Shown here one piece after another: positions 1 through 49,285 of a DNA stretch of 64,000 nucleotides; the first letter of the stretch is position 1, and every line of letters starts with the position of its first letter. The position numbers and the translations under genes are program-made. The notes beneath the pieces were generated by a model that searched no databases, was not told where the DNA came from, and was given only the letters and a program-made list of their open reading frames with translations. This stretch comes from a virus (Duplodnaviria; Heunggongvirae; Uroviricota; Caudoviricetes), in the IMG/VR virus record IMGVR_UViG_2724679237_000005, positions 1 to 64,000 of that record; one strand, written 5' to 3'.

Positions 1-31
1 AAGCAGGTCTTTAAATAAGCTCCCAGACCGA

Positions 32-298
32 TTACATCACCAGTAACTTCGCTTTGGCTCGACCTAAAGTGGTTAACCCAAGAGTTCGGCGGTGATAGCG
101 ATTGTCACTGCGTTGGCGCGTATGCCCTTTCTCCACCAGCCCCTTTTTTATCAGAGCGCGAATTGAGAACTGGATACTTTGCTTGGTTGTCTTGTACGGC
201 AAAACTTCAAGCAATTCGTCCAGATCAAGTAGATGACCTCGCTCATAACCGAGATTGAGCGTTTTGATGATGTCCTTTTGTTTATCGGTTAACGTCAT
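32..298 (-). CDS. small DNA-binding-like protein (winged-helix suspected), distal gene of the ParB-ABC-GNAT operon
   Basis: 88-aa ORF on the same strand, 9 nt after the GNAT-like ORF. The segment SIQFSIRALIKKGLVEKG looks like a wHTH recognition helix plus wing. No family recognised. Confidence 0.4.
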   Translation of the reverse strand: MTLTDKQKDIIKTLNLGYERGHLLDLDELLEVLPYKTTKQSIQFSIRALIKKGLVEKGHTRQRSDNRYHRRTLGLTTLGRAKAKLLVM

Positions 299-307
299 GG
301 CAAATCC

Positions 308-1198
308 TTATGCCGGTAAAGCAATTTCTAACGGTTTATCCAAAGGTTGTTTGTCGAATGCCAGCAGTGGCAGCGTGTCAGGCAGTCGACGACCAAAGTC
401 AGGGTTTCGGTACACACCATACAACGGAGACGTAAAGCTCAGGTTGTGAATGTCCTTGAGCAGCTTCACAATGCTGGCCTCGTCCACCAGACTGTCGGCA
501 ATGTCTTGAATTGTCGTGCCACGATTCCTCCCAGCTTTTGCCAGGGAACTGTTCTTGTGGTAGTCCGCCACCAGATCTCGCAGTGCACGGCGACGACGGG
601 ACTCGCTCATTGCGAACAACTCTTTGACGATCGCCTCGTTATCACCCGGGTCGGAACGGAAATGGCGCTGGAACACACGCAGTGCACTTTCATAGCTCTT
701 CGGTCGCTCAGGGCGGATGAACTTGAACCCTGCTTTCATGGCGAAGGGATTGTATTTGCTCATCGATGACTGGATCTCAATGATTGGCCGGTCATGCATC
801 CTGCTAACCAGGTTAATCATTCGATAAGAGACGCCTACGCCACGGTACTGGGTATCCACAACTGATCGACTGATCACCGCGAAGTTGTTATTCACGTACC
901 GACCCCAGTACTGGTTAGCCACGGTGGTATTAGTGGTTGGTTTCAACTTAGGAAACATGCGGTGGCGAGGTGCCAGCAGTAGTTTCGGGTAAGCCATAAC
1001 CACGACGCCCACCAGACGGTCATCAAGTTCGCAGCGATAGTAAGTTGGCGCGAAAGGTTTGCCGTCTGTTTTGTAGTGAAGCGACTTAAGAGCGTGCCAG
1101 TCCTCTACAGTTCCCCTTGTGACAGTCATTCGCTCCAGAAAGTCCAGATGACGCGGAAACTCTTCAGGGCGGTAGCGTTTAATGATGATGTCCGTCAT
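308..1198 (-). CDS. GNAT-like acetyltransferase-domain protein
   Basis: 296 aa. Its start overlaps the stop of the ATPase ORF (ATGA at 1195-1198). VVDTQYRGVGVSYRMINLV fits GNAT acetyl-CoA motif A (Q/R-x-x-G-x-G/A). The N-terminal ~90 aa are unassigned. Confidence 0.5.
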   Translation of the reverse strand: MTDIIIKRYRPEEFPRHLDFLERMTVTRGTVEDWHALKSLHYKTDGKPFAPTYYRCELDDRLVGVVVMAYPKLLLAPRHRMFPKLKPTTNTTVANQYWGRYVNNNFAVISRSVVDTQYRGVGVSYRMINLVSRMHDRPIIEIQSSMSKYNPFAMKAGFKFIRPERPKSYESALRVFQRHFRSDPGDNEAIVKELFAMSESRRRRALRDLVADYHKNSSLAKAGRNRGTTIQDIADSLVDEASIVKLLKDIHNLSFTSPLYGVYRNPDFGRRLPDTLPLLAFDKQPLDKPLEIALPA

Positions 1199-1860
1199 AA
1201 ATGAACCTCATCATGACTACCATTGTGATATTCCACCTTCACGCGTTCTTTGTAGTGCTTGGTGATCTGCATATCCGGGCGCAGCGCGTTCTTCAGGTCT
1301 TCGTGAGTCGTCGCCACCATTACCGTCGCACCAACCTTTCGAGCGGCACGCTGGAGGTTAGATGCCACAACCTGAGCGGTTACACGGTCTAGAACAGCAC
1401 CGAACTCGTCAGCAGCCCACACTTTAGCGCCTGACTCAATCAGTTTGGCAATCTTGAGACGATATTTCTGACCGTCTGACATTTCAGAAGGCTTGCGAAC
1501 AAACAGATATGCATCGTTCAGACCAGCCATAGATAACAACCCAAGCGCATCGCTGGTCGTTTTGCCCAACTGATCGATGACGTTAACCTCATTATCGAAG
1601 GTAAAATCATCGATGGAGGCTACAGACAGCCCTTCATCCTTCATCTGTCGTTGCAACTCGCGCAGCACAACGGATTTGCCGGAACCGGATTGGCCGGTGA
1701 TGTACACCACATCGCCCTGCTTCACTTCCAGCACCAGATTGTCGTAAAGCGTCCACTCTTTTTCGTCCAGGCCAAGCCCGAACGACTCAGCGATTTCCAA
1801 CGTGCGCGTGGTTTTATTTACGCGTGTCTGAAACGATACGTTGATGATGTATTTGCTCAT
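1195..1860 (-). CDS. soluble ABC-type ATPase
   Basis: 221 aa with Walker A GQSGSGKS, signature-like SDGQKYR, Walker B VWAADEF and H-loop TTHE. No TM partner. Overlaps both neighbours by 4 nt. Confidence 0.7.
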   Translation of the reverse strand: MSKYIINVSFQTRVNKTTRTLEIAESFGLGLDEKEWTLYDNLVLEVKQGDVVYITGQSGSGKSVVLRELQRQMKDEGLSVASIDDFTFDNEVNVIDQLGKTTSDALGLLSMAGLNDAYLFVRKPSEMSDGQKYRLKIAKLIESGAKVWAADEFGAVLDRVTAQVVASNLQRAARKVGATVMVATTHEDLKNALRPDMQITKHYKERVKVEYHNGSHDEVHL

Positions 1861-2525
1861 GCAGCCATCTCCCCGGAAGAGATCTTCTCCGCATATGCCA
1901 CAAATGCGTCTACCCCGCTTTCTCCCGTCATTTCTTCCATATGGGCAAGCAAATCACCAACAACAATGGCAGAGCCAGCAGGGAGCGTTTTAAAGCCCAA
2001 TACGTCGACAACACGTACTTCTTCCGCTGCAACTTCACGACTGATCTCGGTGTGTTCATCCTTCTGTCGTTTAGTTTCTTCGCCAAGATCGATAACTAGC
2101 GAGTCGGTGTCCATTTCTTCTGTCATACTGCCAACGAGAACATTCAACTCACGCTCTTCAAAGCCGAAAACCTCGATATCGTCCAGAACAAGCGACTCAA
2201 GCTCTTTCTGTAGCTTAATTGCATCGTAATCAATGCTGGCAAGTCGGTTATCTTCAAGGCGCTTCGCACGAACCTCGTCATCACTGAGATCATCGCGAAC
2301 AATAACCGGTACGCGCTCAAGTCCAGCAAAAATTGCAGCCTCACGGCGGCCATGACCAGTAATAATTACGTCGTTCTTATCGACCGTAATTGGCTGGTCA
2401 AATCCGCGCTTTTTAATGGCTGCGGCCAGATCTCTGATCTGCTGTTCATCATGCTTTTTGGCATTCATCTCATAGGGAATAAGATCTGCCGGGTCGCGAT
2501 ATACGATTTCAAACTTTTTGGTCAT
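1857..2525 (-). CDS. ParB/Srx-like nuclease-domain protein 1
   Basis: ATG at 2525 (MTKKFEIVYRDPADL) is preferred over the in-frame ATG at 2558. ParB-type motif ITGHGRREAAIFAGLERVPVIV. Acidic C-terminal half. Confidence 0.7.
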   Translation of the reverse strand: MTKKFEIVYRDPADLIPYEMNAKKHDEQQIRDLAAAIKKRGFDQPITVDKNDVIITGHGRREAAIFAGLERVPVIVRDDLSDDEVRAKRLEDNRLASIDYDAIKLQKELESLVLDDIEVFGFEERELNVLVGSMTEEMDTDSLVIDLGEETKRQKDEHTEISREVAAEEVRVVDVLGFKTLPAGSAIVVGDLLAHMEEMTGESGVDAFVAYAEKISSGEMAA

Positions 2526-3205
2526 TACATACGCTCCTTGTAGTAGTCGACCAGCCACACCAGAGCCTCACCAGCGTTCTCCATTTCATTACCGGTGTTA
2601 ATAGCCTGCTCTTTGATGATGTTTTTTATGGTTTCTGCAACACGATCTGACGCATCGAAGGTTACTTTGAAGCGCATGGTCTGATGTTCCGCACCGACAC
2701 GCTCGGTTTTCTCTCGTTTGTCGGTATCGACAGGCTCATCACTACCACGAGACAACGCCTCCAGTGCTTCAAGGTCGATTGCCGCCTCTTTTGCTAAAAC
2801 CATCGAGATTTCGTCGTCATACGGGGCGATTTCAGACAGTTGATAGTCAAGTTCTGACTGAATTTCTTCAATGAAGCGTTGCAATGCGATTTGGTCGTCT
2901 TCACCGTATCGCTCGTTGTCCACCAGTGACATCTGTTTTGCCACGACATCGCTAATTTTGCCCACAGAAAGCACTGGAACCGTTGAAATTCCTTGCTCAA
3001 TAGCGGCACGCCAGCGATGTTCGCCGCCGAGGATTTCAAAAAATCCATCTTCAAGTTCACGAGCCAAAATTGGCTTAAAAAAGCCCAATTTTTCGATAGA
3101 ACCTTTCAGTTTTTCAAAATTCTGCGCACCAACCGAATTGGTGTTCCAGGTATTCGGGCGAAGGTTGGCAACATCAACCTGCAAAATCGTGATTTTTACA
3201 TCCAT
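2525..3205 (-). CDS. ParB/Srx-like nuclease-domain protein 2
   Basis: ATG at 3205 (MDVKITILQVDV); a GTG at 3223 is also possible. Motif ILGGEHRWRAAIEQGISTVPVLSV. The stop shares nt 2525 with the next ORF's start. Confidence 0.7.
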   Translation of the reverse strand: MDVKITILQVDVANLRPNTWNTNSVGAQNFEKLKGSIEKLGFFKPILARELEDGFFEILGGEHRWRAAIEQGISTVPVLSVGKISDVVAKQMSLVDNERYGEDDQIALQRFIEEIQSELDYQLSEIAPYDDEISMVLAKEAAIDLEALEALSRGSDEPVDTDKREKTERVGAEHQTMRFKVTFDASDRVAETIKNIIKEQAINTGNEMENAGEALVWLVDYYKERM

Positions 3206-3223
3206 TTTATTGCTACAATACAC

Positions 3224-3241
3224 TAAGTAATCACTTACTTA
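3224..3241. promoter_or_regulatory. B-type palindromic operator-like motif
   Basis: taagtaatcacttactta lies in the 82-bp divergent region between the ParB operon and the helicase gene. It belongs to the dispersed ATAGGTAAG-N2-4-CTTACCTAT family. Confidence 0.55.
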
Positions 3242-3287
3242 TTATAATAGCCAAATAACATACAAAAGGCACTAAGGAAAGAGGTTT

Positions 3288-4847
3288 ATGACTGTTCGGA
3301 TTGTATCTAACGCAGTAAATGCGCTTATTTCTGGCGCAGATGACAAGGTAAAGCAACTGGTGCAGCAAATGTTGAGCTACGAAGTCGAGACTGGCGACTG
3401 GAAGGGCACAAGCACGATGTTCAACTGGAGTAAAAACTCGTTCCCTGCTGGCTTTGCCAAGCCTGTAGCGGCGAACTTGAACAAGTCGGGCATCAAATGT
3501 GTTCATATCCGCAAAGACAAAGCCCCGGCGCTTGGAAAGCCAAATCCGGCGGTTAACCCATTCCCATACAATCCTGATTATGCATATCAGGATCAGGCTG
3601 TGGAAACACTAGTTCGCGAGGGAATGATGATTGCCCAGATCGCTACTGGTGGTGGGAAATCTAACGTTGCCTGCAAAGCAGCTGCACGTATCGGTCGAAT
3701 GACATTATTTTTAACAACCCGCTCTGTTCTGATGTTTCAAATGGCCGAAAACTTCCAGAGGTCCATCGACTACCGCGCCGAAAATGGCGAACCGTGGTTA
3801 AAAGACCAAAAGGTTGGAGTCATTGGCTCGGGTGAGTTCCAGGTATCACGACATATCAACGTCGCTACAGTTCAAACTCTTGCAAGTTTCCTCGAAGAAC
3901 CACCACGCGATGCAACACCAGATAAGAAAAGCTACCACCTCAAACGTCGGGAGTTGGTGAAACGCTTCCTTTCAAGTGTCTCTCTTCTTATTCTGGAAGA
4001 GGCGCATGAGTCTTCAGGCTCAAATTTCTATGACATCGCCAGATTATGTGTGAACGCAGACTATCGTCTGGCGCTTACAGCCACGCCGTTCATGAAGGAT
4101 TCGACGGAAGCCAACATGCGCCTGATGGCGGTGGCCGGGCGAATTGAAATTAAAGTCACAGAAAAGTACCTGATTGATCGAGGCATTCTGGCAAAGCCGT
4201 ACTTCCTTTATCATAAAGTTGCCTACAAGCCAGACGAGGCCAGAATCAAGGCCGAACTTGCCAACAAACACCTCAATTTTAGAGTTGGTATGAGCACCGC
4301 CTACCAAAAGGCTTATCAGTTGGGGATCGTGTATAATTTGGGACGTAACGAGGCCATAGTGCGCGAGGCATTGCTTTATAAGCAACATTCACTCAACTGC
4401 ATGACTCTGGTTCGTCTTAAACGCCACGGGCAAATCCTGATGGAGATGATGAAGGAGTCAGGTCTTAGAGTTGATTTCATCTATGGGGAATCTAACCAGA
4501 CGACAAGGCAAGCAAAGCTGAACAGTTTAGCGTCTGGCGAAATAGATGTTTTAATAGGCTCGACTATTCTGGATGTCGGTGTTGATGTGCCAAGTGTGGG
4601 CGCGGTCATTCTTGCTGGTGGTGGGAAAGCAGAAGTTGAAATGAGACAGCGTGTCGGTCGTGGCTTACGAGCCAAGAAGAATCAGGCAAACGTGTGTTTT
4701 ATCACTGATTTCATTGACATTAGCAACAAATACCTGTTGTCTCACTCTTATGAGCGAAAACACATCATCGACACCACACCTGGCTTTGCAGAAGGTGTAT
4801 TGCCTATTGATGGAGCATTCGATTTTGGAGTTCTGAAACGAGATTAG
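3288..4847 (+). CDS. superfamily-2 DEAD/DEAH-like helicase
   Basis: 519 aa. Motif I ATGGGKS, motif II LILEEAHE, motif III LTATP, motif VI RQRVGRGLR. SD aggaaagagg lies upstream of the ATG. Confidence 0.8.
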   Translation: MTVRIVSNAVNALISGADDKVKQLVQQMLSYEVETGDWKGTSTMFNWSKNSFPAGFAKPVAANLNKSGIKCVHIRKDKAPALGKPNPAVNPFPYNPDYAYQDQAVETLVREGMMIAQIATGGGKSNVACKAAARIGRMTLFLTTRSVLMFQMAENFQRSIDYRAENGEPWLKDQKVGVIGSGEFQVSRHINVATVQTLASFLEEPPRDATPDKKSYHLKRRELVKRFLSSVSLLILEEAHESSGSNFYDIARLCVNADYRLALTATPFMKDSTEANMRLMAVAGRIEIKVTEKYLIDRGILAKPYFLYHKVAYKPDEARIKAELANKHLNFRVGMSTAYQKAYQLGIVYNLGRNEAIVREALLYKQHSLNCMTLVRLKRHGQILMEMMKESGLRVDFIYGESNQTTRQAKLNSLASGEIDVLIGSTILDVGVDVPSVGAVILAGGGKAEVEMRQRVGRGLRAKKNQANVCFITDFIDISNKYLLSHSYERKHIIDTTPGFAEGVLPIDGAFDFGVLKRD

Positions 4848-4849
4848 TT

Positions 4850-5128
4850 ATGAGCGAAAAGAAAACAACTTATTGCCAAGTGGCATTGTCTGATAAGGCC
4901 AATGAAAAACTTGGAAAATTTCAAATAAAACTCAAAGAGAAAAAAATCAAGATGTCTAAGGCTGAAGTTATCAATGCCATTCTGGAGACGATGACTATGG
5001 CTGAATTTGACAAAGTCACATCTGCCGTTGGGGTTTCCGCTAAGACGCGTGAGAAAATCATGCGCATCTATGAGAACTCCAATATGACAAAAAAAGATCT
5101 AGAGGAAATACTGAGCAGGTTGCCGTAA
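4850..5128 (+). CDS. hypothetical Lys-rich protein (possible ribbon-helix-helix)
   Basis: 92-aa ORF starting 2 nt after the helicase stop. The TYCQVALSDKANEKL pattern is a weak RHH-like hint only. Confidence 0.4.
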   Translation: MSEKKTTYCQVALSDKANEKLGKFQIKLKEKKIKMSKAEVINAILETMTMAEFDKVTSAVGVSAKTREKIMRIYENSNMTKKDLEEILSRLP

Positions 5129-5193
5129 CATTTCATATTTACCCCCTATCTACTAATTCTATGATGTGCTCACTTGTTAGAAAGGAGCACATC

Positions 5194-5760
5194 ATGAGTT
5201 GGTTAAAAGAATTATCATTTGTTGACACCACTGGCGCTAAGAAAAATCATTCTTTCTGGAAAGTCAGCGATCCTTCTGATTTTCTTGTTGGTGCTAATGC
5301 TGCTTTTGAATTGCTTAACTTTTATCAACGTTATCCTGAAATGAAACACAGTCCACTCCTGTACAGAATAACAAACGATATGAATAGGTCTGGTTTATTA
5401 TCAAGTGAGTCAGCGAAAGGCTTTTTTAGCAAAATTACGCCACACATATCATTCGATTCAGCAAACGAAATTGATTATCTACCCACGAAACCTCAAGAAC
5501 AATTATCTGTACCACCTGAGAAAAAAGAAAGACGAATTGCCAGCATTGAAAATATATCGAAAGAGCTTCGCACAACAACGTTGAGGCTGCTGAACTTTCT
5601 TACGCTACTTAATTGGATAGATGATCAAACATTGATTCCATCAACCGATGCGTTGGATAACAGAGTCCTTAGGCTGAACAAAAAATCGCAATTTGGTTTT
5701 GTGTTCACCAAAAAAGGTGAAGATTTAATCAAAAGAAAATATAGATTATTGAATGATTAA
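5194..5760 (+). CDS. hypothetical protein (AT-rich island)
   Basis: ATG at 5194 follows SD aaggag. The upstream in-frame ATGs at 5161/5164 lie inside an 11-bp hairpin arm. No recognisable motifs. Confidence 0.5.
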   Translation: MSWLKELSFVDTTGAKKNHSFWKVSDPSDFLVGANAAFELLNFYQRYPEMKHSPLLYRITNDMNRSGLLSSESAKGFFSKITPHISFDSANEIDYLPTKPQEQLSVPPEKKERRIASIENISKELRTTTLRLLNFLTLLNWIDDQTLIPSTDALDNRVLRLNKKSQFGFVFTKKGEDLIKRKYRLLND

Positions 5761-5905: not shown

Positions 5906-6394
5906 ATGAGTATTTCTATAAACAAAATAATTAACTCTTTACGACATAAAATATCACATGGAAAAGATGCTCTTTTTAAAGACAAATATTATCTATTCAA
6001 CTTAGAGCCGTACAAATGTACAAAATTTTATATCACTCGGAACCGTAAATATTCAGTTTCAATCACAAAAGACATGAAGAAAATCTCTTCAGAAGAGTAC
6101 TTCATATCACATATTTATATCTACCCATTTAAATTAGAACCATTAAATATAATTCTTCCAACAATAAAAGGGGTTGAACTTGAAGGTTATACTTTAAGCT
6201 CTAACTTTAATGATATGGGTGTACAAAAACCAGGGACAAGGTCATACTACGCCTACAAAGTAAAATGCAATAACTACAACGCACTTAACATGCTAATCAG
6301 CAAACTTGAAACGGAGATAGTCGAAGGAAATCTAAATGATGATCATGAAAAATTAGAACAAATAGAAAAACTTAGAAAGTGTGATGTTAAATAA
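5906..6394 (+). CDS. hypothetical protein (AT-rich island)
   Basis: 162-aa ORF, very AT-rich and Lys/Asn/Ile-rich. No motif recognised. Confidence 0.5.
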   Translation: MSISINKIINSLRHKISHGKDALFKDKYYLFNLEPYKCTKFYITRNRKYSVSITKDMKKISSEEYFISHIYIYPFKLEPLNIILPTIKGVELEGYTLSSNFNDMGVQKPGTRSYYAYKVKCNNYNALNMLISKLETEIVEGNLNDDHEKLEQIEKLRKCDVK

Positions 6395-6409
6395 TTGGAT
6401 TATCATGAT

Positions 6410-7009
6410 ATGAAAATGAAACTTTCGTTACTCCTTGCTTGTATATGCCTCCCGGCGTTTTCCGCCAACGCATTATCAGATTTCGTCTCTGACATGCAAA
6501 AAACGTACAGCATGTTTACCTCCGAAGACGTAGTAGAATACAAATCACGAGGTCTGAATCAGCCAGTTTGGTTCAGATTCTCAGACAACGCAGAAGAAAC
6601 AATACTTAATGGAGGAAAAGAAAGATTACGGTTGCAAATTAACGGGACCGCTGTACCAGAAAACGTTAATGTAAGCTCTGACGAAGCCATGAAGCCATCT
6701 GGAATTGTTTTAGAAGTTCAAGACGGCACACTTTACTGTGATGAAATGGCTACAACAGGTTGCCAAGTAAACATTAGGGTTGGCAATGAAGAGCCTATCG
6801 TTACTTACGCCAAGGCTGAAGGGAATACAAGTGGAAAGGTATTGTTTATCGATGAAAATATCTCAAAACGTATCGTTCGTGACATACAGAAAACAGCTAA
6901 CTCTAAATCCGTCGATAAAAAAATCTATGTTGAGGTTCCCTTCTTTGTCGTTGGTAACAAAGAATTTAAATTTGGGTTGCTGAAAACACCTCTAAGAGTA
7001 TCAGAATGA
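6410..7009 (+). CDS. exported protein (signal peptide; possible lipoprotein)
   Basis: ATG at 6410 gives MKMKLSLLLACICLPAFSANA. This reads as a signal peptide with either an LLAC lipobox or an ANA cleavage site. The stop overlaps the next ORF (ATGA). Confidence 0.6.
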   Translation: MKMKLSLLLACICLPAFSANALSDFVSDMQKTYSMFTSEDVVEYKSRGLNQPVWFRFSDNAEETILNGGKERLRLQINGTAVPENVNVSSDEAMKPSGIVLEVQDGTLYCDEMATTGCQVNIRVGNEEPIVTYAKAEGNTSGKVLFIDENISKRIVRDIQKTANSKSVDKKIYVEVPFFVVGNKEFKFGLLKTPLRVSE

Positions 7010-7530
7010 GAACATTGGACATCACCTACGGCATACCGGCTGAAGTCTGGCCGCGAGACTACGAACATGCTGAAAACATACTTATGTTCTGGCGGAAGAA
7101 CAACATTCCTGTAAGAGTCACGCTTGAAGACGGTCAGGTGTTTTGCATGTACGTTCAGGGGACAATGCCTTCCCGCAATAAGCTAGATTTATGCCCGCTT
7201 CCATATGATAAAGAAAATCGTATAAGACTCCCACTTGAGCGCATTAGCACAATTGAATCAGGTGTAATCGATGGCATTGCTCGCGAGTTCAAAGGTAGGC
7301 TAACAATACATCCAGACTATGTTGACAATCAGCCATCACGCCGTGACTTTTTTGCGATATGTCGCAAGGCTTATCAAAACGACCAATCTATAAGGGTCTA
7401 CATGGCAGACGGTCGTGAAATTGAAGGGGTGTCAAGAGGCGTTGATGCTTGCCAGGTCACTCTTAAGTTAGAAGACGGCAGAAAAATACTTGTTTTCTTC
7501 GATTGGGTCGAACGAATCCTTCCATTTTAA
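7006..7530 (+). CDS. protein with two Rof (Rho-binding antiterminator)-like repeats
   Basis: 174 aa. Two segments (DYEHAENILMFWRKNNIPVRVTLEDGQVF...IRLPLERISTIES and DFFAICRKAYQNDQSIRVYMADGREIEG...ILVFFDWVERI) resemble E. coli Rof as I remember it (DYDNLELAC..LTLELKDGEKLQ...LRLDKITSF). Confidence 0.45.
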   Translation: MRTLDITYGIPAEVWPRDYEHAENILMFWRKNNIPVRVTLEDGQVFCMYVQGTMPSRNKLDLCPLPYDKENRIRLPLERISTIESGVIDGIAREFKGRLTIHPDYVDNQPSRRDFFAICRKAYQNDQSIRVYMADGREIEGVSRGVDACQVTLKLEDGRKILVFFDWVERILPF

Positions 7531-14478: not shown

Positions 14479-16512
14479 TTACTTAACCTGGTGACCAGGT
14501 TTAGCACCAGCATCCGGGCTTAACAGGAAGATATCTTTCCCGCCGGGGCCAGCAGCCATCACCATGCCTTCAGAGATACCGAAGCGCATTTTACGCGGAG
14601 CCAGGTTAGCCACCATAATGGTGTGACGACCAATCAGTGCCTGTGGATCTGGATAAGCGGAACGGATGCCTGAGAAGACATTACGCTTTTCACCACCGAG
14701 ATCCAGCGTCAGGCGAAGCAGTTTGTCAGAACCTTCGACAAACTCCGCGTTTTCAATCAGCGCCACACGCAGGTCAACTTTGGCGAAGTCGTCAAAGGTG
14801 ATGGTTTCCTGAATCGGGTCGTCAGCCAGTGGGCCAGTTACCGGTGCAGCTGTGGCTTTCACTTCTTCTTTGGATGCTTCCACCAGTGCTTCCACCTGTT
14901 TCATATCGATACGGTTATACAGTGCCTTGAACGGATTCACTTTATGGCCCAGCAGCGGTTGCTGGATACCATCCCAGGTCAGTTCTGTATTCAGGAATGC
15001 TTCTGCACGTTCAGTCAGTTTCGGCAGTACCGGTTTCAGGTACGTCATCAGCACGCGGAACAGGTTAATGCCCATAGAGCAAATCGCCTGCAGATCGGCA
15101 TCGCGTCCTTCCTGCTTCGCCACCACCCACGGAGCCTGTTCATCGACATAGCGGTTAGCCAGATCAGCCAGCGCCATGATTTCACGAATCGCTTTACCAA
15201 ATTCGCGGCTTTCCCATGCTTCACCAATCACTTCAGCGGCATCAGTAAAGGTTTTGTACAGTTGCGGGTCAGCCAGTTCGCCTGCCAGCACACCGTCAAA
15301 ACGCTTATTGATAAAGCCCGCGTTACGGGACGCCAGATTCACCACTTTGTTCACGATATCGGCATTCACGCGCTGAACGAAATCCTCCAGGTTGAGATCG
15401 ATATCATCAATGCGCGAAGAGAGTTTCGCAGTGTAGTAGTAACGCAGGCTGTCAGCGTCAAAATGATTCAGCCAGGTGCTGGCTTTAATAAAGGTGCCGC
15501 GAGACTTGGACATCTTCGCACCGTTCACCGTCACATAGCCATGAACAAACAGGTTGGTCGGCTTGCGGAAGTTGCTGCCTTCCAGCATGGCAGGCCAGAA
15601 CAGGCTGTGGAAGTAAACGATATCTTTACCGATGAAGTGGTACAGCTCGGCGGTGGAATCTTTCTTCCAGTATTCATCGAAGCTTACGCTGTCGCCGCGC
15701 TTATCACACAGATTCTTGAAAGAGCCCATATAGCCAATCGGTGCGTCCAGCCAGACGTAGAAATATTTACCCGGCGCGTTCGGAATTTCAAAACCGAAGT
15801 AAGGTGCATCGCGGGAGATATCCCACTGTTGCAGACCAGATTCAAACCACTCCTGCATTTTGTTTGCCACCTGCTCCTGCAACGCACCGCTGCGGGTCCA
15901 TGCCTGCAACATTTCGCTGAAAGAGGGCAGATCAAAGAAGAAGTGTTCAGAATCACGCATTACCGGCGTAGCGCCAGAAACCACCGATTTCGGTTCGATC
16001 AATTCAGTCGGGCTATATGTTGCGCCGCAGACTTCACAGTTATCGCCATATTGATCAGGTGCTTTACATTTCGGGCAGGTGCCTTTCACAAAACGGTCCG
16101 GCAGGAACATGCCTTTTTCCGGGTCGTACAACTGAGAGATAGTGCGGTTTTTAATAAAACCGTTCTCTTTCAGGCGAGTATAGATAAGCTCAGACAACTG
16201 ACGGTTCTCTTCGCTGTGCGTCGAGTGATAGTTGTCATAGCTGATGTTAAAGCCTGCGAAATCAGTCTGGTGTTCCTGACTCATTTCGCCAATCATCTGC
16301 TCCGGTGTGATACCAAGTTGCTGTGCTTTCAGCATGATCGGCGTGCCGTGGGCATCGTCGGCACAGATGAAATTAACCTCGTGGCCGCGCATTCGTTGGT
16401 AACGAACCCAGACATCAGCCTGGATGTGCTCCAGCATATGGCCGAGGTGGATTGAGCCGTTAGCGTACGGCAGCGCGCACGTCACCAGAATTTTCTTCGC
16501 GACTTGGGTCAT
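14479..16512 (-). CDS. metG: methionine--tRNA ligase
   Basis: 677 aa from [25 protein letters not shown]. Carries the HLGH (HIGH-class) and KMSKS motifs, CPKC/CEVC zinc knuckles and a C-terminal Trbp111-like domain. It differs at only a handful of positions from E. coli MetG as I remember it. Confidence 0.97.
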
Positions 16513-16669
16513 AGTAGGCATTACTTCTTTGTAGTGAAAAGGGGCTTGATAGTAACAAAATGGCCTTATGTCTGCCATGTGATAACAGCATTTCTCATAA
16601 ATGATTAAATGTCGTAGCTGGAGTACACTACAAGGCGACAATTGCGCAAATTAAAATAAAGGAGACGGG

Positions 16670-27800: not shown

Positions 27801-27820
27801 ATAGGTAAACACTTACTTAC
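27801..27820. promoter_or_regulatory. B-type palindromic operator-like motif
   Basis: ataggtaaacacttacttac. Confidence 0.5.
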
Positions 27821-30014: not shown

Positions 30015-30034
30015 ATAGGTAAGTGATTACCTAT
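30015..30034. promoter_or_regulatory. B-type palindromic operator-like motif
   Basis: ataggtaagtgattacctat has perfect 8-bp arms and a 4-bp spacer, 12 nt upstream of the Dam-like start. Confidence 0.6.
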
Positions 30035-33734: not shown

Positions 33735-34838
33735 TCACACCGCCACTGGAACCTTGATCCACGGTAGAGGGTCATAGCCAAGAATTAAAACCTCGTCCCA
33801 TTTGAAATCATCCAACTCTGACCATTCATGAGGGAAAATAACGACCGGATCTGAATGCTCTGGAGCCTGTCGTTTCATTAGCTCACACACACCTTCCATG
33901 TGGTTGTTGTACAAATGCACGTCAAAGCCAAAATGCACAAATGCACCGGCCATGTGACCCGTAATCTTCGCGAGAAAATGAGTGAGAATGCCATAGCCAG
34001 CAATATTGAATGGCATACCAACAAAAGTGTCTACGCTACGCTGTACGAGGCAGGAGTTGAGGATGCGTTTGGGGATTCCAAGTTCATCCAGTTCGGCTTC
34101 AGTAACACTGCCGTCCATCTCCAGATCGTATAGCATCTTGGTGTAGATAGACTCGTAACCGAGGCGACTGTGTTGAAGACCAATGTCAGTTGCCATCGTT
34201 AAACGGGTTTCAAAATCCAGCTCACGACTCCACAAAGAGAAGACAAAGTGGCAAGGTGGCAGCTTCATATCCTCAAGCTCGCCTACGTTCCATGCGTTAA
34301 GCATGATGCGACGATCGGTAGGGTTCGTGCGCAGTGTATCGACAATACGCTGTAGCTGATCGATTTCACGGGACAGCACTACGCGATCTTCACAGATACC
34401 CAGGTATCCCTCGACTTTGTACCCGCGTTCACGGAAAGTAGCGATCTTGCTCAGATATTCACTATGGCTCACGATGCGGGTATCTTCCCATCGACGCCAC
34501 TGCTTACCGTAAACCGGCCCCAAATCGCCATTCTCATCGGCCCATGCATCCCAAATCTTAACGCCGTTATCCTTGAGAAATTGGATGTTGCCCGTGCCTT
34601 TCAGATACCACTCAAGTTCGACAAGTAGTGGCTTAAGATTTACCGCCTTTCCAGAAATAAGCGGCACAGTCCCACCAGTAAGCATGTAGTAAGAGGGAAC
34701 GTAGCAGGTGCTTAAAGTACCAGTGCCTGTGCGATCATCAGCCTGCACGCCGCTTTTAAGCACCGTCTCAATAACTTTTGCATACGATGCGTTTGTTACC
34801 TGACCGTTCGTATGCTCACGATTCAAAAGGAGTGACAC
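33735..34838 (-). CDS. thyA: thymidylate synthase (ThyA family, with insertions)
   Basis: 367 aa with a GTG start. DRTGTGT, catalytic LPPCH, GMPFNIAGY (Asn = dUMP-type) and DVHLYNNH. About 100 aa longer than E. coli ThyA. Confidence 0.8.
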   Translation of the reverse strand: MSLLLNREHTNGQVTNASYAKVIETVLKSGVQADDRTGTGTLSTCYVPSYYMLTGGTVPLISGKAVNLKPLLVELEWYLKGTGNIQFLKDNGVKIWDAWADENGDLGPVYGKQWRRWEDTRIVSHSEYLSKIATFRERGYKVEGYLGICEDRVVLSREIDQLQRIVDTLRTNPTDRRIMLNAWNVGELEDMKLPPCHFVFSLWSRELDFETRLTMATDIGLQHSRLGYESIYTKMLYDLEMDGSVTEAELDELGIPKRILNSCLVQRSVDTFVGMPFNIAGYGILTHFLAKITGHMAGAFVHFGFDVHLYNNHMEGVCELMKRQAPEHSDPVVIFPHEWSELDDFKWDEVLILGYDPLPWIKVPVAV

Positions 34839-34853
34839 AATAACCTCACAAAG

Positions 34854-34869
34854 ATAAGTAATTACTTAT
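34854..34869. promoter_or_regulatory. B-type palindromic operator-like motif
   Basis: ataagtaattacttat is a perfect 16-bp palindrome ~15 nt upstream of the thyA start. Confidence 0.6.
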
Positions 34870-35009
34870 TCATTGCGTGAGTTTACATTTATTGAGGGGA
34901 CAAGGCCAGATAGATAAAAAAATGGTGGCCATAGGCCACCAAAAACGAATAGTTGTTTCAGGAATTTAACGCGCCAACACAATATACATAGATAGATAAC
35001 TACCTACAA

Positions 35010-44249: not shown

Positions 44250-44269
44250 ATAAGTAAGTATATACCTAT
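44250..44269. promoter_or_regulatory. B-type palindromic operator-like motif
   Basis: ataagtaagtatatacctat, upstream of the sbcD-like gene. Confidence 0.5.
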
Positions 44270-49225: not shown

Positions 49226-49241
49226 ATAAGTAAGTACTTAT
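49226..49241. promoter_or_regulatory. B-type palindromic operator-like motif
   Basis: ataagtaagtacttat. Confidence 0.55.
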
Positions 49242-49285
49242 ATATTTTCAAGAGATAAAAAAGGCGTCCTGTGGACGCCTTGTGT

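Follow-up and report, generated by a model that had tools for sequence, protein, structure and literature searches.

A translationally coupled ParB-ParB-ABC ATPase-GNAT operon ahead of the terminase genes of SSU5-type phage-plasmids: a candidate DNA-acylation module

The 64,000-nucleotide stretch of viral DNA considered here (the window; positions 1 to 64,000 of the IMG/VR Caudoviricetes record IMGVR_UViG_2724679237_000005) begins with an operon of five minus-strand genes. In the order in which they would be transcribed, these encode two proteins of the ParB/Srx fold (ParB1 and ParB2), a soluble ABC-type ATPase, a GNAT-like acyltransferase and a small winged helix-turn-helix (wHTH)-like protein, and they diverge from a gene for a superfamily 2 (SF2) helicase. 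The ATPase and acyltransferase correspond to the two halves of a fused protein that is encoded by many other viruses, and the operon as a whole occupies a fixed position immediately upstream of the terminase genes. On balance, we give a probability of about 0.4 to the reading that the operon encodes a lytic-cycle, ParB-assisted, ATP-dependent machine that acylates phage DNA.

Over its first 5.2 kb the window shows 98% identity to Escherichia phage Cyrano and 83% to Salmonella phage SSU5, and the same stretch matches 783 plasmids in PLSDB, whose hosts include Klebsiella, Escherichia, Enterobacter, Yersinia and Salmonella. The window thus belongs to an SSU5-type phage-plasmid. Among elements of this type are those of the groups pMT1 and pHCM2 (Pfeifer et al., 2021), and antibiotic-resistance-carrying Klebsiella phage-plasmid records are among the matches found. 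A sister plasmid, NZ_CP072690, shares 98.6% identity with the window over the first 5.9 kb.

Gene organisation and synteny

The original prediction, which was made from the sequence alone, described four open reading frames (ORFs) chained by overlaps of 1-4 nucleotides, and both the coordinates (Table 1) and the junctions proved on re-reading to be as it gave them. ParB1 and ParB2 overlap by a single nucleotide in TAATG at 2527-2523, and the sequence ATGA joins ParB2 to the ABC gene at 1860-1857 and the ABC gene to the GNAT gene at 1198-1195, after which a 9-nucleotide gap precedes the ATG of the wHTH gene. PHROG alignments and the Cyrano annotation place the start of ParB1 at the ATG at 3205 rather than at the listed upstream GTG, and ParB2 likewise starts at the ATG at 2525 and not at an upstream GTG at 2558, with the PHROG alignment running from residue 12.

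The coupled genes occur together well beyond this element. In a scan limited to one genome per species, which yielded 30 loci, most of them on contigs of 100-118 kb, the helicase gene and the ParB1-ParB2-ABC-GNAT series are found in identical order and orientation in 28 undamaged complete loci, and one more complete locus keeps the order with genes that are frameshifted pseudogenes. The helicase stands head-to-head with ParB1 in all complete loci examined, and at least 27 of the 30 genome loci have a wHTH orthologue behind the GNAT gene. The hosts cover the Gamma-, Beta- and Alphaproteobacteria and include Yersinia pestis, Kluyvera, Xenorhabdus, Morganella, Photobacterium, Acinetobacter, Massilia, Paraburkholderia, Sphingomonas, Phyllobacterium, Paracoccus and Magnetospirillum, among others. 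The same block is present in four isolated phages, namely Pseudomonas nickie, Rhizobium RHEph10, Stenotrophomonas ANB28 and Xanthomonas JGB6, and phages not described as plasmids, such as nickie, thus keep it too; a Nickievirus relative, Nican01, has been reported with long terminal repeats. An arrangement conserved to this extent is far beyond chance.

Downstream of the operon, in all annotated records, there is a gap of about 130-260 bp followed on the same strand by genes for a TerS-like DNA-binding protein, the large terminase, the portal and the capsid. Because of this synteny, the operon is the first transcription unit of the siphovirus packaging and morphogenesis arm rather than cargo. 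A description as a module of this element, as given originally, understates the case: throughout a siphovirus lineage the operon forms part of the syntenic core and has its place just ahead of the terminase genes.

Both ParB-fold assignments are borne out, and the two proteins are indeed different. ParB1 matches the Pfam family ParB_N at E 3e-13 and PHROG 723 at E 1.5e-79, whereas ParB2 matches ParB_N at E 1.5e-8 and PHROG 930 at E 1e-112, and their N-terminal domains share approximately 33% identity. In ParB1 an N-terminal nucleotide-binding domain is followed by an acidic helical linker and a small conserved C-terminal domain, and ParB2 has the same overall build. The Noc and parB_part models match only the N-terminal domain of ParB1, and coverage by TIGR00180 is likewise confined to the N-terminal part. 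A GG-x-HR box (GGEHR) and a DN-x-R box in ParB1, and a GHGR box in ParB2, are invariant among 30 orthologues. The next-best matches of ParB2 are ParB domains fused to phage DNA methyltransferases (PHROG 498, E 5e-32; PADLOC MTase_II, E 3e-17). No helix-turn-helix (HTH) was detected in either protein, ParB_N being the sole Pfam match at E up to 0.1, and the C-terminal domains show no significant match to PDB sequences, to profiles or to each other. The idea that these domains are ribbon-helix-helix folds found no support, as the AlphaFold model of ParB1, for which the homologue input was all at least 85% identical, is too poor to use, with a predicted local distance difference test (pLDDT) score of 38.6.

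The helicase contains the ResIII, DEAD and Helicase_C domains of Pfam and matches PHROG 16 at E 1e-93, and its motifs I, II (EEAHE), III and VI are invariant among approximately 30 orthologues. It is separated from ParB1, as originally described, by a control region of exactly 82 bp that carries a palindrome. This 18-bp sequence, TAAGTAATCACTTACTTA, lies at 3224-3241 and abuts a -10-like TATAAT on the ParB1 side. Seven copies of TAAGTAA-N4-TTACTTA with no more than two mismatches are present in the window, where 0.2 would be expected and none of 100 shuffles reaches seven; some of the other copies stand ahead of operons, and the one at 34855 is 17 bp upstream of a 367-aa thymidylate-synthase homologue. 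The form TAAGT[AC]A-N4-T[TG]ACTTA is kept at the same spot in alpha-, beta- and gammaproteobacterial loci, the remainder of the spacer not being alignable. Phage nickie keeps the operon, yet its helicase/ParB1 spacer shows no evident palindrome of the TAAGTAA type. The palindrome fits an operator for a dimeric regulator, which may be either a prophage repressor or the wHTH protein of the operon. It also resembles the operator of an element-wide global regulator. In simple scans for sigma-70 promoters and terminators, positions 1-5300 showed no signal above background.

The last gene of the operon was correctly placed after the GNAT gene, and its wHTH assignment derives from weak matches only, to LexA_DNA_bind (E 0.07), to Sta1/Lrs14 (E 0.003) and to a CARF-associated wHTH model (E 4.5e-5); the orthologue in RHEph10 weakly matches Penicillinase_R (E 0.005). 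The protein is a candidate autoregulator of the operon. Just 3′ of its gene, and about 130-150 bp ahead of the TerS-like gene, is a large inverted repeat, CCTGCTTC...GAAGCAGG, that has 17-bp arms in SSU5 and of which positions 1-7 of the window form the start of the first arm. Across the copies compared, the arms measure 8-17 bp and read CCTGCTTC(C)GTATATAT and ATATATAC(G)GAAGCAGG. Its AT-rich interior contains an operator-like TAAGT-N-ACTTA core, and for both SSU5 and Cyrano the ends of the deposited linear record fall within the repeat. The repeat may be a cos or pac site, or the record ends may reflect the depositors' choice of start; the further idea that the operon lies at the end of the virion DNA that is injected first was dropped, as these record ends may not be real termini.

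A split ABC-GNAT pair

The identification of the third gene product as an ABC-type ATPase with intact motifs stands, for it matches ABC_tran of Pfam at E 2e-12 as well as PHROG 293 and PHROG 11143, and its Walker A motif, signature (SDGQ), Walker B motif and H-loop are invariant among 31 orthologues. The GNAT fold of the fourth is confirmed by structural matches, and the acyl-CoA-binding motif A is conserved. This protein also has a conserved basic insert at residues ~70-108, and its C-terminal domain is helical.

A profile of the GNAT family retrieves 891 relatives among 1.8 billion representative proteins, and many of these are 450-500 aa long, with ABC_tran within residues 1-200 and an Acetyltransf domain in addition (Pfam). 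The GNAT profile matches such fused proteins at E 1e-27 to 1e-15 over residues ~200-480, and the ABC protein of the window aligns over its full length with their residues 1-200, including an unusual conserved N-terminal segment, SF-T...T-R...EAFGLG. A C-terminal Y-x-x-W/Y-x-NP motif and all of the catalytic motifs are common to the pair in the window and the fused proteins. With a profile of the fused protein, 2095 fused homologues are found at E <1e-10, mostly in archaea (Bathyarchaeia, Nitrososphaerota) and in some bacteria. The name in use for this type in the JGI and Cyrano annotations is COG2401, ‘ABC-type ATPase fused to a predicted acetyltransferase domain’. The pair in the window has the ABC domain and a homologous GNAT with motif A and differs in not being a single polypeptide, and from these alignments we read the two genes as a split orthologue of the COG2401 type, not as a separate family. 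Since the two parts form one polypeptide in more than 2000 other viral proteins, they most likely act as one enzyme.

A scan of viral contigs with the GNAT profile gave only close SSU5-type relatives, and other virus groups were reached through the fused homologues. The large terminase gene is immediately upstream of the fused gene in 35 of 72 viral loci, with a gap of -19 to 12 bp in 30 of these 35, and the fused gene ends within 300 bp of the contig end in 19 of the 72 contigs. A Heliorestis prophage has the order ABC-GNAT, amidoligase, small ORF, GGACT-family protein, large terminase and portal, and in Nitrososphaerota proviruses the fused gene is the penultimate gene of the virus and adjoins one for an SNase-type nuclease. 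At three loci ABC-GNAT and a family-B DNA polymerase (PolB) are encoded by a single ORF of 1260-1310 aa that sits in a replication module with a primase-helicase, RecA and an SbcC-like ATPase, and at others the polymerase is the adjacent gene, unfused. Every recurrent partner in these contexts is thus a protein of DNA replication or packaging. One homologue (P0167) contains an intein with a LAGLIDADG domain inside its ABC domain, an insertion typical of replication-type genes.

Possible functions of the operon

If the operon acylates DNA, its enzymatic core would consist of the ABC ATPase and the GNAT, made from overlapping genes. The GNAT would move an acyl group from acyl-CoA onto a base in double-stranded phage DNA, and the binding and hydrolysis of ATP by the ABC domain would drive engagement of the DNA. 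ParB1 and ParB2 would be nucleotide-switched adaptors, tethering the enzyme to DNA or activating it there in the way that phage ParB-like proteins serve thymine dioxygenases. Either the wHTH protein or a prophage repressor would bind the palindrome over the promoter, and lytic growth would turn on both the operon, which lies just ahead of the terminase genes, and its diverging helicase. The DNA of the progeny would in this way be marked before packaging and thus be protected from restriction in the next host.

Several features favour this reading. Every partner of the ABC-GNAT unit handles DNA (terminase, PolB, ParB and SF2 helicase); the ParB domain of ParB2 is nearest to those of phage DNA methyltransferase fusions; and counter-defence genes, for a Tad2-like protein and a PNKP-type phosphatase, are embedded in orthologous operons. 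The original prediction had allowed for acylation of either DNA or tRNA, and of the two it is acylation of DNA that the context best supports. It had also found the gene combination unfamiliar, a view that needs revision, because the ABC and GNAT genes are a split form of COG2401 and both halves of the proposal have precedents. That an ABC ATPase-coupled GNAT acylates a nucleobase of DNA had been predicted before, according to a sentence of Iyer et al. (2021; PMC7824862) that cites Iyer et al. (2013). One subclass of phage thymine dioxygenases has been shown by experiment to need a ParB-like protein that lacks a DNA-binding domain (PMC13229309; PNAS 2026), and, in the preprint of that work, ParB (27%) and terminase (19%) are among the commonest neighbours of such DNA-modification genes (10.1101/2025.08.14.668559). 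In addition, ParB-methyltransferase fusions are enriched in prophages, and a GTP-binding ParB-acetyltransferase fusion has been described (PMC12704722; PNAS 2025).

Other observations weigh against this scheme. Among structural matches to the GNAT, the anti-restriction enzyme Mom is top among viral models and ninth among PDB chains, a likeness that is suggestive but does not discriminate, as N-terminal protein acetyltransferases score as high and identity to Mom is 11-12%. The ABC domain resembles a transporter-type nucleotide-binding domain and has no obvious DNA-binding insert. No ParB gene was found near the fused ABC-GNAT genes of the viral loci, either with phmmer or with a purpose-built ParB hidden Markov model; ParB is therefore neither a universal partner nor essential to the core function, and the ParB pair appears, from the gene contexts, to be an addition particular to the proteobacterial lineage. 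No modified base has been reported for SSU5-type phages in the searchable literature, and the acyl chemistry proposed here is a prediction from sequence. We know of no biochemical characterisation of the COG2401-type ABC-GNAT family, and DNA acylation by such a pair is thus of a predicted kind rather than a proven one. Finally, mutations in the nucleotide-binding residues of the ParB-like protein left activation of the dioxygenase unimpaired (PMC13229309), which makes the switch mechanism uncertain.

A literature search found no paper dealing with this operon. Its parts and the general idea are known, the idea as a prediction, and it is not a categorically new system. The readable literature does not describe the split form with its two linked ParBs, paired helicase and operator control, its location before the terminase genes, or its distribution across a lineage of phages to which clinically common plasmids belong. 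Conceivably, though this is rather doubtful, the base mark would itself be chemically undescribed, an acyl or aminoacyl adduct laid down by a GNAT, powered by the ABC ATPase and guided by two ParB switches, with the same core enzyme marking thousands of bacterial and archaeal tailed viruses. Were DNA acylation confirmed, SSU5-type phage-plasmids would carry a new kind of epigenetic or anti-restriction mark, and a medically relevant phage-plasmid family (the 783 PLSDB plasmids) would possess a DNA-modification enzyme whose core is common to many environmental and archaeal viruses. This would affect how restriction barriers are crossed, how the DNA behaves in sequencing and cloning, and which roles are assigned to the ParB fold outside chromosome segregation. 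With four or five genes and the cultivable phages SSU5, Cyrano, nickie and RHEph10, the prediction of 2013 is directly testable by nucleoside mass spectrometry. Even if the target is a protein, two ParB paralogues coupled to an ABC ATPase and a GNAT ahead of the terminase genes would represent a new use of these folds.

Such a protein target is the first alternative to be weighed, and we consider it unlikely. The GNAT would serve host takeover or counter-defence by acetylating a target in the host, be it a defence protein, RNA polymerase or a nucleoid protein, or else a packaging or virion protein of the phage, with the ParBs only localising it on DNA. AcrVA5 acetylates Cas12a in this manner, the operon adjoins virion genes, and the anti-defence and accessory genes embedded in orthologous operons fit a counter-defence neighbourhood and would suit protein acetylation equally well. 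Phage GNATs that acetylate host proteins are known, as with Rac (cited in PMC7824862). The basic insert of the GNAT (R78, H79, K86, R111, R119) suits an acidic polymer and so offers a weak argument to the contrary, while the PolB fusion and the steady association with terminase, ParB and helicase genes argue that the target is DNA rather than a soluble protein.

The abundance of palindromes raises a different possibility, which is that the operon is a regulatory or DNA-organising system of the KorB/KorA type in which the ParBs load at the palindromes and, together with the wHTH protein, silence or time transcription or ready the DNA for packaging, the ABC-GNAT pair being a passenger. The seven intergenic copies, several of them ahead of operons, the deep conservation of the palindrome at the operon's own promoter and the nearby inverted repeat and terminase genes are all in keeping with this, and KorB is a ParB-type clamp that acts with the small KorA protein (cited in PMC13229309). 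We regard it as distinctly unlikely, however, for neither ParB has a detected HTH or other sequence-specific DNA-binding domain, the palindrome is equally possible as a site for the wHTH protein or a prophage repressor, nickie keeps the operon with no such palindrome evident in its spacer, and it would leave unexplained why the ABC and GNAT genes are so strictly coupled and conserved.

An ATPase joined to a GNAT also follows the logic of TmcA, and an RNA or tRNA acetyltransferase could be imagined in which the ATPase delivers RNA to the GNAT, either to reprogram translation or to protect tRNA from host anticodon nucleases. The methionyl-tRNA synthetase gene on the element, the PNKP-type phosphatase (associated with RNA repair) in some orthologous operons, and the ribosome-acting ATPases ABC-F and ABCE1 among the weaker ABC matches would agree with such a role. 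Nonetheless, a Pfam search finds no RecD-type helicase, GNAT_acetyltr_2 or tRNA_bind_2 domain, so that the resemblance to TmcA/NAT10 drawn in the original prediction holds as an analogy only; the conserved partners are all DNA enzymes, and the synthetase gene is variable cargo outside the conserved block. Acetylation of RNA is accordingly very unlikely.

Phage-plasmids often carry defence cargo, and the operon could be imagined as a prophage-encoded system of defence or exclusion against other phages or plasmids, in which a ParB would be the sensor or nuclease, the ABC protein would provide the switch and the GNAT would be the effector. Defence systems repeatedly contain ABC ATPases and proteins of the ParB fold, DndB and DpdB being ParB-like, and there are weak PADLOC matches to mad3, mad8 and PtuA. 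This is very improbable, given that the operon is core and fixed ahead of the terminase genes across the lineage, including in phages not reported as temperate, that PADLOC gives no system-level match and none at all for the GNAT, and that fused homologues are located within virion-gene modules. There is hardly any likelihood that the operon is a second plasmid partition or maintenance system, as the source annotation ‘chromosome partitioning protein ParB’ and the listing of two ParB copies under partition in a related Acinetobacter (AB) phage-plasmid group (Pfeifer et al., 2021) might suggest, because no ParA is adjacent, the ParBs lack a detected HTH and the canonical C-terminal domain, a separate ParA-type ATPase (MipZ, AAA_31, CbiA) with a small partner gene lies about 30 kb away on the sister plasmid, and the block is also found in nickie-type phages, whose records show long terminal repeats and no sign of plasmid life. 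The original prediction was right to set the operon apart from ParA/ParB pairs on the ground that its ATPase is of the ABC type.

Surrounding features and comparison with known systems

Orthologous operons act as a hotspot for the insertion of accessory genes between the ParB2, ABC and GNAT genes, and the operon in the window has none. Among the inserted genes are those for a Tad2-like anti-Thoeris domain (E 5e-23), a PNKP-type HAD phosphatase (E 1e-26), a thioredoxin, a BTLCP cysteine peptidase and an N4 gp49-family protein. In 12 loci a zinc-ribbon protein of 55-72 aa (CxxC...CxxC) is encoded after ParB1, and a recurrent protein of 84-145 aa, grouped by eye on a shared G-E/x-hydrophobic-strand motif, is encoded after ParB2 or the ABC gene. 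Neither has a Pfam match or is present in the window, and both recur in most non-Escherichia versions, such that the ancestral operon may have had seven genes.

On the other side of the control region, the gene that begins 3 bp past the helicase stop codon is kept in 7 of 9 enterobacterial loci and is not detected in more distant ones; a second gene follows it. Farther along are genes that are cargo of the element, namely those for a FljA-like protein, a methionyl-tRNA synthetase, an iron-sulfur carrier ATPase and an invasin. Beyond these is a nucleotide-metabolism and replication cluster with NrdAB, a long thymidylate-synthase homologue, DHFR, a MazG-like NTP pyrophosphohydrolase, a phage N6-adenine methyltransferase, a DUF4942 protein, RNase HI and SbcCD-like genes, to which the annotation of the sister plasmid adds DnaE, a DnaB-like helicase, a primase, a ligase and a gp32-like protein, in part at positions past the end of the window. 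Together, the long ThyA homologue and the MazG-like enzyme might hint at a non-canonical pyrimidine metabolism.

Table 1. Coordinates of the operon and other features. Positions refer to the window unless a locus handle (L) is given.
Feature	Position	Strand	Description
Stretch 3′ of operon	1-31	none	minus-strand bases 7-1 start the large inverted repeat
wHTH-like gene	32-298	minus	88 aa, last operon gene; PHROG 900, E 2e-45
GNAT-like gene	308-1198	minus	296 aa; C-terminal half of fused ABC-GNAT proteins
ABC ATPase gene	1195-1860	minus	221 aa, soluble; N-terminal half of fused ABC-GNAT proteins
ParB2 gene	1857-2525	minus	222 aa, ParB/Srx fold, paralogue of ParB1
ParB1 gene	2525-3205	minus	226 aa, ParB/Srx fold
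Divergent control region	3206-3287	none	82 bp, ParB1/helicase spacer
SF2 helicase gene (UvsW/XPB-like)	3288-4847	plus	519 aa, diverges from operon
Palindrome copies	3224-3241, 23751-23768, 27802-27819, 30016-30033, 34855-34872, 44251-44268, 49227-49244		intergenic, 7 of 7
First gene after helicase	4850-5128	plus	PHROG 1466
Second gene after helicase	5161-5760	plus	PHROG 13473
FljA-like gene	7006-7530	plus	‘repressor of phase-1 flagellin’, E 5e-81
Methionyl-tRNA synthetase gene	14479-16641	minus	full length, with C-terminal tRNA-binding domain
Iron-sulfur carrier ATPase gene	16670-17770	plus	ApbC/Mrp type
Invasin gene	18258-21893	minus	1211 aa, invasin/intimin-type inverse autotransporter
Nucleotide-metabolism/replication cluster	~23650-45360		matches L193 (NZ_CP072690 86000-110685)
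Thymidylate-synthase homologue	33735-34838	minus	367 aa
Inverted repeat, sister plasmid	L032 19955-20003		
Inverted repeat, SSU5 record ends	L206 362-400 and L205 1-18		
Accessory insertions	L195 5893-6195; L023 ~6370-6632; L012 7112-7573; L024 6703-7137; L018 7327-7914; L010 7652-8002		L195: RHEph10 gp080
Zinc-ribbon gene after ParB1	L013 6070-6288; L024 4765-4956		55-72 aa
84-145 aa protein gene after ParB2 or ABC	L002 7741-7995; L194 5646-5981; L028 6511-6933; L023 5663-6079		
ABC-GNAT-PolB fusions	L187 4580-8362; L116 4448-8380; L139		L139: 1300-aa ORF

Searches of the component proteins against PADLOC, NCBIfam and Pfam gave no system-level match for the operon. As to known defence systems, in PADLOC 2.0 the ABC protein matches generically (mad3, mad8, PtuA), the ParBs match the ParB part of MTase_II, and the helicase is a generic SF2 match. 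A GNAT toxin-antitoxin of the TacT/AtaT kind, in which a GNAT of ~170 aa is paired with a DUF1778/RHH antitoxin, was likewise considered and rejected, the GNAT here having 296 aa and no antitoxin-like neighbour; an annotated pair of DUF1778 and GNAT genes is present elsewhere on the sister plasmid. The operon resembles KorB-KorA of RK2 and ParABS in combining a ParB-fold protein and a small DNA-binding protein with a palindrome that recurs in promoter regions. It differs from these in having two translationally coupled enzymes and no ParA/IncC partner, and, although the GxxR nucleotide-binding box is present in its ParBs, an adjacent deviant-Walker ParA and a ParB with HTH and C-terminal dimerisation domains were not found. 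TmcA/NAT10, an ATP-dependent RNA cytidine acetyltransferase, combines an NTPase with a GNAT that acts on nucleic acid, as may be the case here, yet the NTPase of the operon is of the ABC type rather than a RecD-like helicase, there is no tRNA-binding domain, no sequence relationship is detected, and the genomic partners are DNA enzymes.

Mom of phage Mu, which makes an acyl modification of adenine in DNA, is a late-expressed anti-restriction enzyme encoded near a genome end, and its GNAT fold is shared by the acyltransferase in the window. Given their low identity and the lack of a family-level sequence match, the latter does not belong to the Mom family; moreover, Mom acts alone, with neither ATPase nor ParB, whereas the GNAT in the window keeps a canonical acyl-CoA-binding motif A and has an extra C-terminal domain of 130 residues. 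The prophage ParB-methyltransferase fusions are those to which the N-terminal domain of ParB2 is most similar (PHROG 498, PADLOC MTase_II), but in the window the ParBs are free-standing, there is no methyltransferase domain, and the linked transferase is a GNAT.

The system of thymine dioxygenase and ParB known as 5mYOX-ParB (PMC13229309) similarly sets a short phage ParB-like protein without a DNA-binding domain beside a post-replicative DNA-modifying enzyme, commonly with terminase neighbours, and its ParB layout, a nucleotide-binding and a C-terminal domain with no DNA-binding domain, appears consistent with that of ParB1 and ParB2 as far as their sequences can indicate. The partner in the window is an ABC ATPase and a GNAT instead of an Fe/2-oxoglutarate dioxygenase, no TET/JBP-type domain of that class being found in the six proteins; there are two ParB paralogues instead of one; and the operon has no hypermodification genes (kinase, aa:DNA transferase or glycosyltransferase). 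Relative to the COG2401 ‘MK0520-like’ proteins, of which the fused forms examined are without a ParB neighbour, the window has its pair split into overlapping genes and accompanied by two ParBs, a wHTH protein and a diverging helicase, while the two proteins of the pair can be aligned over their full lengths with the respective halves of the fused form.

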